Positions 4,695 through 26,299 of a DNA stretch of 64,000 bases are shown here, in pieces. This stretch comes from a virus, in IMG/VR virus record IMGVR_UViG_3300029891_000001, positions 1 through 64,000 of that record, one strand, 5' to 3'. Each line of letters starts with the position of its first letter. Positions within the stretch are counted from its first letter, which is position 1. The notes under the pieces are model-generated. The model did not search any database. It saw nothing but the letters and a program-made list of their open reading frames with translations, and was not told where the DNA came from. A program made the translations under genes and the position numbers.

Positions 4695-4919
4695 ATGCTA
4701 TCTATCATTGAAACCTCAGAAAAATTTCCAGTAGTTGTTCAAAAGAACACTTATAAGGGAACTGAAAGAATTGATCTTAGGCACAATTTTTATGTCGATG
4801 GAAAACTTCAACCAACTCAAAAAGGGATTGTTCTTCCTGCTGACAATCCCAAGATAATAATCCAGCTTATTAAAGCGGTTATGAAAGAGTCAGGAATAAT
4901 AGTAAAGGATCTAAAATAA
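4695..4919 (+). CDS. PC4/p15-like ssDNA-binding protein
   Basis: TYKG..RIDLR....DG...PTQKGI signature; AAGGAGG RBS. Confidence 0.8.
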   Translation: MLSIIETSEKFPVVVQKNTYKGTERIDLRHNFYVDGKLQPTQKGIVLPADNPKIIIQLIKAVMKESGIIVKDLK

Positions 4920-5230: not shown

Positions 5231-5316
5231 GCCGGAGTGGTGGAAATGGTTTACACAACGGACTTAAAATCCGTCGAGAATAAAATCTCATATCGGTTCA
5301 AATCCGATCTCCGGCA
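5231..5316 (+). tRNA. tRNA-Leu, anticodon TAA
   Basis: GCCGGAG/CTCCGGC acceptor stem, ACGGA-CTTAAAA-TCCGT anticodon arm, long variable arm, GGTTCAAATCC T-arm; CCA not encoded. Confidence 0.93.
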
Positions 5317-19993: not shown

Positions 19994-20089
19994 ATGGGAG
20001 ACAAGAAACCAAAGAAAAAGAAGAAACAGATTAAAAAAACTAACAAAATTGAAGAAACACCACTTATACCAAAAAAGAAAAAGAAATAA
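19994..20089 (+). CDS. 31-aa lysine-rich microprotein
   Basis: AAGGAGG RBS; MGDKKPKKKKKQIKKTNKIEETPLIPKKKKK. Confidence 0.55.
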   Translation: MGDKKPKKKKKQIKKTNKIEETPLIPKKKKK

Positions 20090-20090
20090 T

Positions 20091-20807
20091 ATGGAAATAA
20101 TCTTAGAACAAATAACTCCAGATGCAGAAGTAGAAATAGAAAAAGCTTGTAGAACTTGTTATTCTAGTTGGCATAGATTTGATCCGCCTAAATCTACTGG
20201 CGAATTAATACAAAAAGTAATTAAAAAAGGACACCATTCTGTATTAGAACATGCTTCTGCAATATTTAGAGTTAAAAATGTTAGTAGGGTATTAACTCAT
20301 GAATTAGTTAGACATAGGCTTATGAGCTACTCCATGGAATCACAACGGTATGTAATATACGCAGACAAAAAAGATAGAAAGAAAACTAAAGACTTCAATT
20401 ATGTTATACCTCCGTCTTTTGAAGGAAAATCTATATCTAAACCAGAGATATTACATTATCCCCCAGAAGGAGATGAAAATACTTCTGTTGTAAAACAATA
20501 TCAATCTGTTATAAAAAATTGTTATAGTTTATATGAAAAAATATTAGACTGCGGAGTCTCACCTGAAGATGCAAGATATGTATTGCCAAATGCTACTTTT
20601 ACAGAGATAATTATATCTGGGAATTTAAGAGCATGGAGAGAACTACTCGTTAAAAGATGTAATCCAAGAGCGCATTGGGAAATTAGGAAAATGGCCGTTA
20701 CGATAAAAGATATTTTAATTGAAAAATGTCCCAATGTATTTTTTGATTTTAAGAAAGGTGAAATTATAATAGATGATGAAAAGAAAATACAAAATATTGC
20801 GTTATAG
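20091..20807 (+). CDS. thyX: Flavin-dependent thymidylate synthase
   Basis: GHHSVLEH, HELVRHR..SYSMESQRY, EDARYVLP, AHWEIR. Confidence 0.96.
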   Translation: MEIILEQITPDAEVEIEKACRTCYSSWHRFDPPKSTGELIQKVIKKGHHSVLEHASAIFRVKNVSRVLTHELVRHRLMSYSMESQRYVIYADKKDRKKTKDFNYVIPPSFEGKSISKPEILHYPPEGDENTSVVKQYQSVIKNCYSLYEKILDCGVSPEDARYVLPNATFTEIIISGNLRAWRELLVKRCNPRAHWEIRKMAVTIKDILIEKCPNVFFDFKKGEIIIDDEKKIQNIAL

Positions 20808-20927
20808 CTTTGATCAAGTTACTGGTTTAGATAGCATATTAAATAGAACAGATATTATTATAGAAAATATAATTACACTTTCTCAAGAAAAAATTCTTAT
20901 AATTTATAAAGAAAAAGGATAATAATA

Positions 20928-21842
20928 ATGTTTCATATTGATTATAGACCTTCATCTTTATCTGAATTTGTTGGAAATGAAAAAGAAATTGCAGAATTAC
21001 AAAAAAGAATAAAGAAATTACCTCAAACTATTTTAATTTCTGGTCCTTCTGGGTGTGGGAAAACTACTTTAGCTCGTATTATAGCTAAAGAGCTTAAATG
21101 TGCCCCATTGTACATTAAAGAAATAGATACAGCACAAGATAGAAGTATCGAAATTATGAGGAATCTTACTAAAGAAGCATACTCAAGACCCCTTATTGGA
21201 AAAAATAAAATATATATATTAGATGAAGCACAACAAATTAGAGATGATAGTCAAAATGCTCTTTTAAAAATAGCAGAAGAACCCCCGACAAACACTTATT
21301 TTGTATTTTGTTCAACTGCACCAGAAAAAATAATCAAAACATTAAAAAACAGATGTTATAAAATAAATCTTAATCCGTTATTAGACAATGAAATAGCTTC
21401 TATCATAAAGGATATAGCAAAAAAAGAAAAAATAGAAATTAACAAACGAATTGGGATGCTAATATTAAAAGAAGCTAAAGGAATTCCAAGAGAAGCTGTT
21501 CAATTATTCGAAAAGCTTAAAGACTGTAAGGACGTTAAAGAAGCAGAAAAATTAATAAAGGGATTTAGTGAAGAAGATACAGAGGTATATGATTTAGTAA
21601 AAGCTATAGTTAGTAAAGATTTTAATTCTATGATAGACAAATTAAATAATCTTCCGAAAACTAGTTATGAATCTATAAGAATAGCAGTTGCTAAAATATT
21701 AAAAGCCTTTATATTAAAATCTGATAATGGAAGAAAAGAAGAGCTATTTAATATATATAAACACTTTATAGATAGTATAGACAATAACTTAGGGGATATT
21801 AATCTATTATATAAGTTTTGGTTAATATCAAAAGGAGAATAA
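20928..21842 (+). CDS. DNA polymerase III gamma/tau-like clamp-loader ATPase
   Basis: YRP.SLSEFVG, GPSGCGKTT, LDEA, NALLK..EEPP. Confidence 0.88.
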   Translation: MFHIDYRPSSLSEFVGNEKEIAELQKRIKKLPQTILISGPSGCGKTTLARIIAKELKCAPLYIKEIDTAQDRSIEIMRNLTKEAYSRPLIGKNKIYILDEAQQIRDDSQNALLKIAEEPPTNTYFVFCSTAPEKIIKTLKNRCYKINLNPLLDNEIASIIKDIAKKEKIEINKRIGMLILKEAKGIPREAVQLFEKLKDCKDVKEAEKLIKGFSEEDTEVYDLVKAIVSKDFNSMIDKLNNLPKTSYESIRIAVAKILKAFILKSDNGRKEELFNIYKHFIDSIDNNLGDINLLYKFWLISKGE

Positions 21843-22285
21843 TGTTTAAAATAAAATATAAACATAACTTTGAAGCTGCACACCGTTTAACTAATTATGA
21901 GGGAAAGTGCAAAAATATTCATGGGCATAACTATGCTGTTCGCATTACAATTTCTTCTGCTACATTAGACAAAGATAATATGGTAATAGATTTCAACAAA
22001 CTAAAAAAAATATGTAAGAATGTAATAGACAAAAATTTAGATCATTGTATTATATTAGACAAAAAAGACAAAAATCTATACAAATCTTTAAAAAGTATGG
22101 ATCATAAAATTTATCTAATACAGGGAAGTCCAACTGCAGAAAATTTAGCATATGAGATTTATCTTCTATTATTAGCAAATTTTAAAGAAAAAGAGAGATA
22201 TTTTTTGGATTCCGTAGAAATATATGAAAATGATAAAAGCATAGCAATATGGGAAGATTCTTTAAAAAGGGTTAAAGATGAATAG
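21842..22285 (+). CDS. queD: 6-carboxy-5,6,7,8-tetrahydropterin synthase
   Basis: FEAAHRL..Y.GKCKNIHGHNY, DF, LDH, PTAENLA, YE. Confidence 0.93.
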   Translation: MFKIKYKHNFEAAHRLTNYEGKCKNIHGHNYAVRITISSATLDKDNMVIDFNKLKKICKNVIDKNLDHCIILDKKDKNLYKSLKSMDHKIYLIQGSPTAENLAYEIYLLLLANFKEKERYFLDSVEIYENDKSIAIWEDSLKRVKDE

Positions 22286-22664
22286 CGAAATCGTATGTAA
22301 ATTTAATGTTCCGGGATTGCATTTTTGGCCAAATCCCCCAGAAATATATAACTATTTAGGAAATCTTCATAGACATATTTTTTTCTTTGAAATATATATA
22401 AGAGTTGGTGAACTTAATAGACAATATGAATTTATTCACTTAAAATCATTATTAACAGAATTAGTATTAAATTCTTTTCATAAAGCTACACCACAAAGCA
22501 AACTTGGGCATTTAAAAAATACAGTATTATTTGGAGGAATGTCTTGTGAAATGATTGCTTTAGAATTATACACTTTGATAAAAAATAATTATGTTTATGA
22601 TATTTCTAAAATTGCCGTATATGAAGACAATGAAAATGGAGCTATATTGAGTTATGAAAATTAA
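22278..22664 (+). CDS. Second QueD-like T-fold protein
   Basis: GLHFWP...HRHIF...EF...SCEMIA...EDNENGA; adjacent to queD. Confidence 0.6.
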   Translation: MNSEIVCKFNVPGLHFWPNPPEIYNYLGNLHRHIFFFEIYIRVGELNRQYEFIHLKSLLTELVLNSFHKATPQSKLGHLKNTVLFGGMSCEMIALELYTLIKNNYVYDISKIAVYEDNENGAILSYEN

Positions 22665-22670
22665 GGAATT

Positions 22671-22772
22671 GGGGGTGAAAGGATTCGATTCAGATGCACC
22701 GATACAGAGTTTATTATATTATTCGCCGGATCATAGCATCTGAAGACTCCGGTTCGACTCCGGACACCTCCA
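22671..22772 (+). ncRNA. Minimal tmRNA-like RNA (tRNA-like domain plus short helix)
   Basis: 5' GGGGGTGAAAGGATTCGA; acceptor GGGGGTG/CACCTCC-A with G3.U70; helix TTCAGATGC/GCATCTGAA; GAC-TCCGG-TTCGACT-CCGGA T-arm; no D-stem or anticodon arm. Confidence 0.85.
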
Positions 22773-22781
22773 CTTATAAAT

Positions 22782-23129
22782 ATGAGTAACACTAACGATA
22801 TAATAGAAAATTATTTACTTGAAAAAGTAATTAATAATAAAAATATACAAGACAAATTATTAAGGAAAAAAAATAAATTACATAGGGAATTAAAATTATG
22901 GGAATTTGAAAAAGAGAAATTAGTTAAAAAATTAGAAAATTCTGCTAGTAAATATTATAAGAATATAAAAAGTCAAGTAACAGAAGTAGAAATTACTATA
23001 GAAAAAATAGAAGAAAACATTAAAGAAATAAATAAATATGTAAACGGAGTAAATATAAGTGGTAAACAACAAAGGCCAACAGTTAGTAGAAAATTTAAAA
23101 GAACAAAAAGAATTAAAGTCAAAGATTAA
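22782..23129 (+). CDS. Coiled-coil hypothetical protein
   Basis: K/E-rich heptad pattern. Confidence 0.6.
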   Translation: MSNTNDIIENYLLEKVINNKNIQDKLLRKKNKLHRELKLWEFEKEKLVKKLENSASKYYKNIKSQVTEVEITIEKIEENIKEINKYVNGVNISGKQQRPTVSRKFKRTKRIKVKD

Positions 23130-24078
23130 AGTAAAATTCTTACATTTAGCATATCATATTCACGAGAATTTGTTTAGAGATTCGTTTATGATCGGGGGTT
23201 TTTATAATTGGCATTTAGCTTTTGAGGGAGAATTTAAAAGATATAACCCAAAAGTAGAAAGCGAATTAGAAAAATATGATATATTATTTGTTGGTTTAAG
23301 TCGCCCAGAATTAGAAGGTGCTTTAATAACAAGATTAAGAAATAAAATTGGGCCTAATAGCAAAACTAAAATTGTTGTATGTATTGATTATGCTATAGAA
23401 TTATGGCAAGATACTTTTCAATATTTTCTATTACAAAAAGAATTAGTGCAAGCAGATTTAATCTTTACATCTGAACCCATGATGAATTCATGGGTTTCTG
23501 CTTTAATTAATGACGATTCAAAAGTTCATCATATAGTTCACCCTTCCAATTTAGATGCAATCAGACATTACGCAAAGCCATATGAAGAAAGAACAATGGA
23601 AATAGCTTCTATTCTTCATAGATATGACAATTATTGGACTCCTCTTTGGTTAGCTACAAAAGATCTTCCGTATAATAATACTGTAGTTTTATTAGATCCT
23701 AATGTAGAAATTAAAATATTGCCCTATTTCGCTTTTACTAAACATGGATTTAAATTTACTCATTATTTAGATTGGGTATCAAGACACAAAGTAGTAGTAG
23801 ATTCTTATCACAGAATTCATACATATGGAAGAACTGCTGTAGATAATGCTTCGTTAGATTTACCTACTGTAGGAGCTGATTGGACATATTCTCAGAAAAA
23901 AATATGGCCAGATCTATGTGTGAGTGCAGGGGATGTATGGAAACAAAAGAAATTAATACAAAAGTTAATGGAAGAAGAATCTTTCTATTTCGATTGTATA
24001 GAAAAAGCGAGAGAAGCTGTACAATTTTATTCTTATGAAAATAGAAAGAACGAATTACTTAATAAACTTTATAACTAA
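23059..24078 (+). CDS. Putative GT-B glycosyltransferase
   Basis: C-terminal TYGRTAVDNASLDLPTVG resembles the GT-B nucleotide-sugar-binding helix motif. Confidence 0.6.
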   Translation: MVNNKGQQLVENLKEQKELKSKIKVKFLHLAYHIHENLFRDSFMIGGFYNWHLAFEGEFKRYNPKVESELEKYDILFVGLSRPELEGALITRLRNKIGPNSKTKIVVCIDYAIELWQDTFQYFLLQKELVQADLIFTSEPMMNSWVSALINDDSKVHHIVHPSNLDAIRHYAKPYEERTMEIASILHRYDNYWTPLWLATKDLPYNNTVVLLDPNVEIKILPYFAFTKHGFKFTHYLDWVSRHKVVVDSYHRIHTYGRTAVDNASLDLPTVGADWTYSQKKIWPDLCVSAGDVWKQKKLIQKLMEEESFYFDCIEKAREAVQFYSYENRKNELLNKLYN

Positions 24079-24088
24079 AGGATATTTT

Positions 24089-24778
24089 ATGTCGTTTTCA
24101 AAAGAAAAAATCGTAGCATTAAGAGAAAAGTTTCCAGACGAATCTCTTCAAACAAAACAAGGCTCTAGAGACAAAAAAACGGGACAATATAAGATATTAG
24201 TAGGTTATAAACCACAATATATTATAGAAAGGCTTAATGACGTTTTGGGCCATGAAGAATGGGATTTTGAAGTAATAACCTCTGAAATTAAAGATGGTTG
24301 GGGAGTTGTTCTTGGAAGATTGTCTGTTTATGAATTCATAACATATCAAGATGAAGAAAGTACCCTTAGAGAACGAAGACTAGTTTGTAAAAAAGAACAA
24401 TTTGGGACAGCTACATTAAACGCTGAAACTGGAGCTGGAGATTGCCTGAAAGGAGCCGCTACTAATTCATTAGAAAAATGCTCTTCTTTATTAGATATCG
24501 GGCATCTTGCTTATAAGGGTAAAGAAAAAGTTCACAAAGATAATGGAGAAGAAGTAAGAGGAACCGAAGGAACTGAAGAAGTTAAAGAAACAGCTCCGTC
24601 TATTTCTTCAAAGAAATCACAACTTAGTGCTATATGCGCAGAAAAAGGAATTAAAAAAGTAGCCTTTAATTCTATGATTAAAAATGTTCTCAAAGAAGAT
24701 AAAAAGCATACTGACTTAACATCTGAAGATTTAGACAAATTAATAGAACATGTTAAAAGTAATGGAGCACCATTTTAA
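24089..24778 (+). CDS. Rad52/Sak-like single-strand annealing protein
   Basis: YIIERLNDVLG...WDFEV; KGAATNSLEKC..LLDIG..AY. Confidence 0.82.
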   Translation: MSFSKEKIVALREKFPDESLQTKQGSRDKKTGQYKILVGYKPQYIIERLNDVLGHEEWDFEVITSEIKDGWGVVLGRLSVYEFITYQDEESTLRERRLVCKKEQFGTATLNAETGAGDCLKGAATNSLEKCSSLLDIGHLAYKGKEKVHKDNGEEVRGTEGTEEVKETAPSISSKKSQLSAICAEKGIKKVAFNSMIKNVLKEDKKHTDLTSEDLDKLIEHVKSNGAPF

Positions 24779-25008
24779 TGAAAAAGATAACAAGTCTTAT
24801 TTATAATAAGTTTCAATACAAAATGGAAGATAGTTCTGATTGGAAAAGATTAGGTGCAATAATAAAAATGTTTGGAACAGAAATTGTTTTAGAAGCAATA
24901 GACGATATAGAATACCACGGGCAAGGATTAAATCATTTATTCGCTATGATAACGATAGAATGTAAACACATAATAAATGAAACCGATATAGATTTTGAAA
25001 AATTATAA
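24778..25008 (+). CDS. Small protein upstream of the helicase
   Basis: Coupled ORF. Confidence 0.6.
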   Translation: MKKITSLIYNKFQYKMEDSSDWKRLGAIIKMFGTEIVLEAIDDIEYHGQGLNHLFAMITIECKHIINETDIDFEKL

Positions 25009-26299
25009 AAATACAGAATCAGACAATGAATGGTACATATTATACTGTTTAATTGACGACAGTTGTAAGTATGATATATTATCTAAAATTCAGCTAAAAC
25101 ATTTTAGCAGTATAGTAACTAAAGAAATATATGCTTTTTGTTCTGAATTGATACAAAAAGACATAAAAATAGATATAACTCTTTTAATCTCAAAATTTTC
25201 TCAATATGAAATTATAATAAAACAATACTTCACTCCAGTAAATACTAAGAATTATTCTCTTTATATAGATGAACTATTAAACAATTATGCTAATAATTCT
25301 ATTAAAAATTTTGGGATTAAAATATCTAAAAATGATATTGGGACAAAAGAGATATATTCAGAAATACAAAATCTCATAGATGATATATCAGACAAACAAA
25401 ATGATAATATCTGTCTTATAAAAGATATAATAGACGAATATTTTGACAATCTATTAAGTGAAGAAGAAACATTAACTGGAATCCCATTCTACATAAAAGA
25501 TATAGATAATATTATAGATGGACTTAAATCTGGGGATTATATTATTATCGCTGGCCGTCCATCTATGGGTAAAACATCTTTAGCTACTCATATAGTAATG
25601 GAAAATGTTCTTAATGGTGTCTCAACTGTATTTTTTTCAATGGAAATGTCTAGAAATCAAATATTAAGCAAAATATTAGCCAGTAAATTAGAAATAGAAT
25701 TATGGAAAATAAAGAAAAAGAGATTGAATGAAGTAGAAAAAGAAAAATTGATTAATATAAAAGAAGCACTAAAATCATCTCCACTAATAATAGATGAAAA
25801 TTCGCTATTAACGATAGAAGACATTAACGCTAAAGTTCAAAAAGCTAAAATACAATTTCCAGATTTGGGATTAATAGTGATTGATTATCTTGGATTAATG
25901 GATGGAAAAGGAGGGAATAGAAACGAAATAGTAAGTAATGTATCAAAAGGGCTAAAGTCTATAGCTAAACAATATAAAGTTCCAGTTATAGCTCTTTCTC
26001 AATTATCTCGCTTATGCGAACTAAGAGAGAATAAACGCCCAGTTTTATCTGATTTGCGCGACAGCGGGAGTTTGGAGCAAGATGCGGACATAGTTATGTT
26101 CGTATATAGAGATCATTATTATAATTACAACCCTCAACATGAAAGCATTTGCGAAATTATAATAGGGAAATTCAGAGATGGGCAAACAGGTAAAACAATA
26201 GTAAATTATGATTTAAAAACACAAACATGGAAAAGTATTCTCAAAAATAGTAGATTGTGGGAATATGCTAAAAAATTCTATTTTGAGACAAAGGAGTAA
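24995..26299 (+). CDS. dnaB: Replicative DNA helicase
   Basis: AGRPSMGKT, FSMEM, IDYLGL, ALSQLSR, RPVLSDLRDSGSLEQDAD. Confidence 0.96.
   Translation: MKNYKNTESDNEWYILYCLIDDSCKYDILSKIQLKHFSSIVTKEIYAFCSELIQKDIKIDITLLISKFSQYEIIIKQYFTPVNTKNYSLYIDELLNNYANNSIKNFGIKISKNDIGTKEIYSEIQNLIDDISDKQNDNICLIKDIIDEYFDNLLSEEETLTGIPFYIKDIDNIIDGLKSGDYIIIAGRPSMGKTSLATHIVMENVLNGVSTVFFSMEMSRNQILSKILASKLEIELWKIKKKRLNEVEKEKLINIKEALKSSPLIIDENSLLTIEDINAKVQKAKIQFPDLGLIVIDYLGLMDGKGGNRNEIVSNVSKGLKSIAKQYKVPVIALSQLSRLCELRENKRPVLSDLRDSGSLEQDADIVMFVYRDHYYNYNPQHESICEIIIGKFRDGQTGKTIVNYDLKTQTWKSILKNSRLWEYAKKFYFETKE

Follow-up and report, generated by a model that had tools for sequence, protein, structure and literature searches.

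The DNA analyzed here (the window), with an average G+C content of about 30%, is the opening 64 kb of an IMG/VR virus record of 111 kb, the completeness of which was estimated with CheckV at approximately 70%. A 102-nt mini-tmRNA gene (length counted to the discriminator) is located at positions 22671-22772 of the window on the plus strand, inside a block of co-oriented genes encoding dCMP deaminase, thymidylate synthase, a clamp loader, QueD, DnaB, and an exonuclease. The RNA gene occupies the entire intergenic gap between two ORFs of the same strand. The upstream gene (22278..22664), which encodes a weak QueD/PTPS-like paralogue of 128 aa assigned to phrog_17812, has its stop 6 nt before the RNA, and the downstream gene (22782..23129), which encodes a Lys/Glu-rich protein of 115 aa with no family above threshold, has its ATG 9 nt past the discriminator. 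A match of the 115-aa protein to YlqD (PF11068) was rejected, as it reached only 20.3 bits against a cut-off of 27 (E-value of 7e-4) and is probably compositional. Scanning for promoters and terminators around the element gave none above chance, and a promoter-like match inside the loop was also at chance level, which suggests that the RNA is co-transcribed with the neighboring genes and cut out by enzymes of tRNA processing. Apart from the mini-tmRNA, the record as a whole contains a single RNA gene, a tRNA-Leu(UAA) at window positions 5231-5316, which is also without an encoded CCA. SmpB was not found in the 111-kb record (approximately 70% complete). A search for clues to the host using window positions 20000-26000 gave one marginal DNA match among cultured phages, and the DnaB helicase had at most 36% identity to any cultured phage.

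The RNA can be divided into the parts of a tRNA-like domain (TLD) and a short insert, all on the plus strand. The 5' strand of the acceptor stem (GGGGGUG, 22671..22677) forms 7 of 7 pairs with the 3' strand (CACCUCC, 22765..22771), including the G3.U70 wobble, in which U70 is located at 22769. Based on the Rfam alignment, positions 22678..22688 form a D-loop analogue of the tmRNA type (AAAGGAUUCGA, 11 nt), which has UUCGA at its 3' end and is one base shorter than the Rfam consensus; this segment recurs in three metagenome members of the family described below and in the elements of Poribacteria. Helix H2 is formed by 22689..22697 and 22736..22744 and encloses an AU-rich loop of 38 nt (22698..22735, 34% G+C), which stands in place of the mRNA-like domain and the pseudoknots. 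An inner stem, CCG/CGG, was predicted in this loop and resembles the inner hairpin of short family members. The GAC linker (22745..22747) comprises the GA (22745-22746) that forms tandem G.A pairs with the last GA of the D-loop analogue in the Rfam alignment and one C that is unpaired in the Rfam structure line. The T arm (22748..22764) has a 5-bp stem and the loop UUCGACU, and the discriminator A73 (22772) is followed by CUU, so that CCA is not encoded. All of the features listed in an earlier, sequence-only reading of this DNA were recovered when the sequence was checked, including a perfect 9-bp helix around 38 nt, the G3.U70 pair, the discriminator A, and a canonical T arm preceded by GAC. 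The G+C content of the element was 48% (56% without the loop), compared with 22-26% in the flanks. The 102-nt strand was predicted to fold with a minimum free energy of -34.8 kcal/mol (z = -3.35), and none of 200 shuffled sequences folded as well.

Comparison with the Rfam tmRNA model RF00023 gave a match at 22671-22775 with 56.7 bits and an E-value of 1.4e-19, where the gathering score of the model is 47 bits. The alignment extends over model positions 1-374 with both model ends aligned, and approximately 300 central positions are reduced to 35 nt. The element shares with canonical tmRNA the complete set of TLD features, namely the 7-bp acceptor stem, G3.U70, the discriminator A73, the D-loop analogue (GG.UUCGA), the tandem G.A pairs, the start of H2, and the T arm, and thus retains the alanine identity set G3.U70 and A73. 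In contrast to RF00023, it is without the distal part of H2, pseudoknots PK1-PK4, helix H5, the resume codon, and the tag frame. No mRNA-like domain with a resume codon and a stop-ended tag frame is present, and the 35-38 nt that stand for the roughly 300 skipped model positions are too few to hold PK1-PK4 and a long H2. Both TLD halves are thus found in normal gene order, joined via a short H2 and a small loop. ARAGORN called neither a tRNA nor a tmRNA at 22671-22772, even with lowered thresholds, and since Rfam assigns the element to tmRNA and not to tRNA, a canonical tRNA was rejected.

A fragment of a tmRNA gene left by attP or island integration was also considered. An attP core holds the 3' part of a tmRNA gene only, and both gene ends are present here; moreover, no tyrosine or serine recombinase (integrase) was found in the 111-kb record, which argues against an attP origin, though about 30% of the genome is missing. 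A two-piece (permuted) tmRNA was rejected because the halves stand in normal order. The sequence-only reading had likewise set aside both an attP fragment and a permuted gene, and these exclusions hold, as does its naming of the element as a mini-tmRNA, which is backed by an RF00023 score that exceeds the gathering score in an alignment of the TLD alone. That the gene is borne by a phage and does not lie at an integration junction follows from the virus record, the replication-module neighbors, and the failure to find an integrase in that record. On the basis of Rfam, the family covariance model described below, ARAGORN, and the lack of an integrase match, the stretch at 22671-22772 is very probably a genuine TLD-only tmRNA gene.

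The nearest relative found for the carrier phage was a 103-kb contig with terminal repeats, which has approximately 59% amino acid identity in the clamp loader and the downstream glycosyltransferase-like gene. In the slot between these two genes, the relative carries four unrelated ORFs, and no tmRNA-like match was present anywhere in its 103-kb record. The two phages therefore differ by a variable cassette, which corresponds to window positions 21843-23058 (queD, the weak queD paralogue, the mini-tmRNA, and the 115-aa ORF) and to positions 2026-3853 of the relative, L024. A tmRNA-like RNA was also absent from 19 loci found through the upstream protein (30-38% identity). Since the element is absent from the nearest relative, the mini-tmRNA is an accessory gene of this cassette. 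No full-length tmRNA was found at the site in the relatives examined, and none is present in the record itself; the element is in all likelihood not an artefact that arose by deletion from a full-length gene at this place. Two results had been named in the sequence-only reading as grounds for abandoning it, a canonical tRNA score and a full-length tmRNA at this place in relatives; ARAGORN at lowered thresholds did not return the one, and the nearest relative did not carry the other.

A strict pattern search of IMG/VR gave no close homologue of the 102-nt version. The sole match was a GC-rich element that was judged to be unrelated, an 85-nt TLD-only tmRNA with 72% G+C, an encoded CCA, and an Rfam score of 69.9 bits, which is identical at L002:3234-3318, L003:4100-4184 (minus strand), and L004:5751-5835. 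Using blastn against cultured phages, matches were obtained only to the 3' TLD of full-length tmRNAs of Streptomyces phages. An AT-rich mini-tmRNA of 98 nt with a long AU-rich central helix and an Rfam score of 68.9 bits was observed at L198:5842-5939 (minus strand) on a 115-kb phage contig with 27% G+C, and was rejected as a relative because its carrier phage is unrelated to that of the window.

A loose two-anchor pattern, which specified the 5' TLD motif and the T loop only and did not impose acceptor pairing, U70, or A73, identified more than 120 stretches in metagenome contigs and, at larger spacings, 21 stretches in IMG/VR. Among the matches listed, the acceptor stem was paired at 7 of 7 positions in 85 of 105 distinct metagenome matches, and the members with at least 6 of 7 acceptor pairs had U70 in 85 of 86 cases, A73 in 84 of 86, and an encoded CCA in only 24 of 86. 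Because U70 and A73 are near-invariant though not imposed by the pattern, alanine charging may be under selection in the family, and these identity elements suggest that the family RNAs are charged. Also among the matches listed, GAC was the commonest linker (44 of 90 family sequences), H2 positions 1-8 were paired in 71-99% of the 90 sequences in the correct register with every Watson-Crick pair type represented, compared with approximately 40% after a shift of one base, and sizes ranged from 78 to approximately 116 nt with a mode of 79-80 nt. For the analysis of covariation, 21 family members were aligned to a hand-drawn structure and used for model R1, from which the window element was left out. 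Paired cells made up 95.2% of this alignment, compared with 68.7% in shuffles and 40-57% in slid controls, and two-sided changes were found in 16 of 23 pairs. Model R1 scored the window element over its full length with 55.9 bits and an E-value of 7e-10.

The window element therefore has the architecture and the covarying stems of a family found mostly on phage contigs, and differs in that it lies at the large end of the size range and has no close sequence relative among those found. The largest ORF matched a PHROG phage structural or packaging family in 6 of 10 sampled carrier contigs, the families being tail fibre, portal, head-tail adaptor, and terminase. In some phage contigs, a mini-tmRNA was observed within or next to large tRNA arrays (L200:50-2726, L209:1448-4119, and L195:4291-4670), and in L200 it is flanked by two groups of tRNAs. 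TLD-only elements were also observed on two contigs binned as archaeal MAGs ('Caldarchaeales' and 'archaeon'; L153:1726-1829 and L175:150-228), which are probably misbinned phage or bacterial contigs.

When the two-anchor pattern was used with bacterial genomes, approximately 22 assemblies of Candidatus Poribacteria were identified, each with a TLD-only element of 82-83 nt, such as that at L161:4650-4732 (plus strand); further copies were present in L147-149, L154, L156-157, L159-160, L164-168, L170, L173-174, L178, L180, and L183-184. These elements have 7 of 7 acceptor pairs, G3.U70, A73, no encoded CCA, and a covarying H2, and their first 18 nt are identical to those of the window element. 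The locus is syntenic and non-phage, located between a Na/Ca exchanger gene and a gene for a PLP-dependent decarboxylase, and the element was present in 19 of 121 sampled genomes of the phylum. Five complete Poribacteria chromosomes each carry a normal tmRNA of 353-359 nt with a standard tag as well as one or two minis; the full-length tmRNAs are located in L185-L189. A literature search returned no paper on a chromosomal mini-tmRNA of Poribacteria.

In the literature searched, one example of a TLD-only tmRNA from a phage was found, the CDS-less tmRNA of mycobacteriophage DS6A (JN698994, 28478-28560; tmID 11587), which is attributed to Mao et al. (2009) in PMC4131195 and PMC11915505 and is listed as 'TLD only' by Hudson, Lau and Williams (PMC4131195). 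The DS6A record itself is without an annotation for the mini-tmRNA. Both elements are borne by phages, join the TLD halves in normal order via a short H2 and a hairpin, have G3.U70 and A73 without an encoded CCA, and fill an intergenic gap of a replication module, which in DS6A lies just upstream of a DNA polymerase III gene; their scores with model R1 are nearly the same (55.4 bits for DS6A and 55.9 bits for the window element). They differ in that the DS6A form is approximately 80 nt long and GC-rich with an inner hairpin of 12 nt, whereas the window element has 102 nt, a perfect 9-bp H2, and the 38-nt AU-rich loop. In addition, the D-loop analogue of DS6A deviates (GGUGGUCGAC) and its Rfam score lies below the gathering score, whereas that of the window element lies above it, and the host phylum and phage type of DS6A are unrelated to those of the window. 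The novelty implied in the sequence-only reading was thus overrated: this kind of RNA is already published (Mao 2009; Hudson 2014; PMC11915505), and the DS6A form can now be placed in a broad covarying family, to which the locus contributes a member with an expanded loop from a large, AT-rich phage. What distinguishes the window element is only its size, the perfect 9-bp H2, and the large AT-rich phage that carries it.

CDS-less tmRNAs of organelles, namely of the mitochondria of jakobids and others and of Mallomonadaceae plastids, form a second group of known RNAs for comparison. They too are reduced to a TLD with no tag frame, and have been retained even though complete trans-translation appears to be impossible for them (PMC11915505). 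These organellar forms are vertically inherited, are the sole tmRNA, and have a dedicated SmpB (PMC11915505), whereas the window element belongs to the accessory genes of a phage and would work alongside the full-length tmRNA of the host.

Trans-translation by tmRNA and SmpB is the main bacterial pathway of ribosome rescue and protein tagging and is an antibiotic target, and AlaRS, SmpB, and EF-Tu recognize tmRNA through its tRNA-like domain. An RNA by which a phage imitates the tRNA-like end alone would provide a compact natural means of modulating this pathway. Based on the anatomy of the element, we infer the following series of events for expression, processing, charging, SmpB binding, and an inhibitory outcome. 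The mini-tmRNA would be transcribed together with the surrounding genes of replication and nucleotide metabolism, its 5' end would be freed by host RNase P and its 3' end by a 3' tRNA-processing nuclease, and CCA would be added by the host CCA-adding enzyme. AlaRS could then charge the RNA with alanine via G3.U70 and A73, and the D-loop analogue, the tandem G.A pairs, and helix H2 may serve for the binding of SmpB and then of EF-Tu. A resume codon, a tag frame, and pseudoknots are all missing, so that the mini-tmRNA cannot complete trans-translation; most likely it would compete with the host tmRNA for SmpB and stalled ribosomes and in this way lower ssrA tagging and rescue during infection. 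We assign a probability of roughly 0.55 to this reading as a whole, that is, to a genuine phage TLD-only tmRNA gene of the same kind as that of DS6A which would compete with the host tmRNA for SmpB and stalled ribosomes. The DS6A form is reported to inhibit the endogenous tmRNA in E. coli (PMC11915505), and a similar molecule was described as a strong inhibitor of tmRNA, perhaps via titration of SmpB (PMC4131195); reports of tmRNA inhibition are confined to the DS6A type.

Both a decoy for SmpB or AlaRS and a tag-less rescue RNA have already been discussed for the DS6A form (PMC4131195, PMC11915505), and either role would fit the conservation of G3.U70 and A73 across the family. A pure SmpB sponge would not need charging (Hudson et al., PMC4131195), so that, given the near-invariance of these residues, the RNA may have a productive role on the ribosome, in which the alanyl-mini-tmRNA with SmpB would enter stalled ribosomes and accept the nascent chain. 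The complex might then be resolved through drop-off with peptidyl-tRNA hydrolase, through ArfB-type factors, or in additional rounds, and ribosomes would be freed from broken phage or host mRNAs with products unmarked for proteolysis. The conservation of U70 and A73 where the pattern did not impose them suggests that charging is selected, peptidyl transfer to a TLD-only tmRNA has been obtained in vitro (Shimizu and Ueda 2006, as cited in PMC3895274), and mitochondria and some plastids have retained both CDS-less tmRNAs and SmpB (PMC11915505). The Poribacteria clade, which keeps a syntenic mini beside a normal tmRNA, is also hard to explain in terms of an anti-host weapon. However, no route is known that terminates and releases a peptidyl-Ala-TLD, and the sole experimental report on the phage form is one of tmRNA inhibition (PMC4131195, PMC11915505); productive rescue in any of these versions is considered a tentative and rather doubtful alternative to competition with the host tmRNA. 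The element takes up the gap between the two ORFs exactly, leaving 6 nt after the upstream stop and 9 nt before the downstream ATG, and neither a promoter nor a terminator of its own exceeded chance; this would also suit a signal for RNA processing, in which the tRNA-like shape would direct RNase P and a 3' nuclease to part the cistrons, as t-elements do, and the freed RNA would be functionless. Such a cleavage signal needs only the acceptor/T-arm minihelix, however, and the D-loop analogue of the tmRNA type, the tandem G.A pairs, the covarying H2, and the near-invariant G3.U70 and A73 would not be needed; a family member is also found inside tRNA arrays in other phages. We therefore regard processing punctuation as unlikely. 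A decaying remnant without function, whether a tmRNA of phage or host with an internal deletion, a fragment of the attP type, or an artefact of assembly, was judged to be highly improbable. The element is missing from the nearest relative phage, no close homologue of the exact version was found with the IMG/VR patterns, and one MAG contig (L177) carries what appears to be an enterobacterial tmRNA with a simple internal deletion, but here both TLD halves are intact, every stem is perfect, the G+C content is held at twice the flanking value, and the architecture agrees with a covarying family; no integrase was found in the record, and from an attP core only the 3' part of the gene would be expected. 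The element on L177, a contig of a Pseudescherichia MAG, is 99 nt long (4791-4889) and has kept both TLD halves, the start of H2, and CCA.

The question of whether the 38-nt loop encodes a tag was considered separately. The sequence-only reading had noted a 12-codon reading, TDTEFIILFAGS-stop, across the loop (22698-22736), possibly due to chance; this frame exists as described, and it is not favored over the others. All three frames of the loop are free of stop triplets, a condition seen in shuffles with P of approximately 0.025 and in 5% of 38-nt windows of the genome, and no frame-specific coding signal is thereby provided. On this basis the element might be a minimal yet complete tmRNA in which a very short tag frame in the loop, e.g. 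the GCC-GGA-UCA-UAG stretch or the 12-codon frame, is resumed and terminated to give a non-degron tag. The open loop is in keeping with such a frame, and natural tags of 2 aa have been reported in some bacteria (PMC11915505). Against it, no single frame stands out, the pseudoknots are absent, no resume context is recognizable, the hydrophobic, Ala-rich C-terminus typical of tags is seen in none of the possible peptides, and family members of 78-83 nt carry only a small hairpin at the position of the loop. A tag encoded in the loop is therefore unsupported, and a complete tmRNA of this minimal form is judged to be very improbable. The CCG/CGG inner stem is kept as in the short forms, and in one family member of 103 nt, an insertion into the inner hairpin of the 79-nt type is plainly seen; for these reasons, the long AU-rich loop of the window element is best read as an expansion of the short-form hairpin. 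A broader version, in which the RNA would be a working minimal rescue RNA, with the loop providing a very short non-degron tag and a stop or with repeated rounds of alanine addition until the chain is released, was rated as decidedly unlikely. If it were true, ribosomes would be rescued by the phage without exposing the products to ssrA-directed proteolysis, and the conserved chromosomal copy of Poribacteria would be a cellular use of the same trick.
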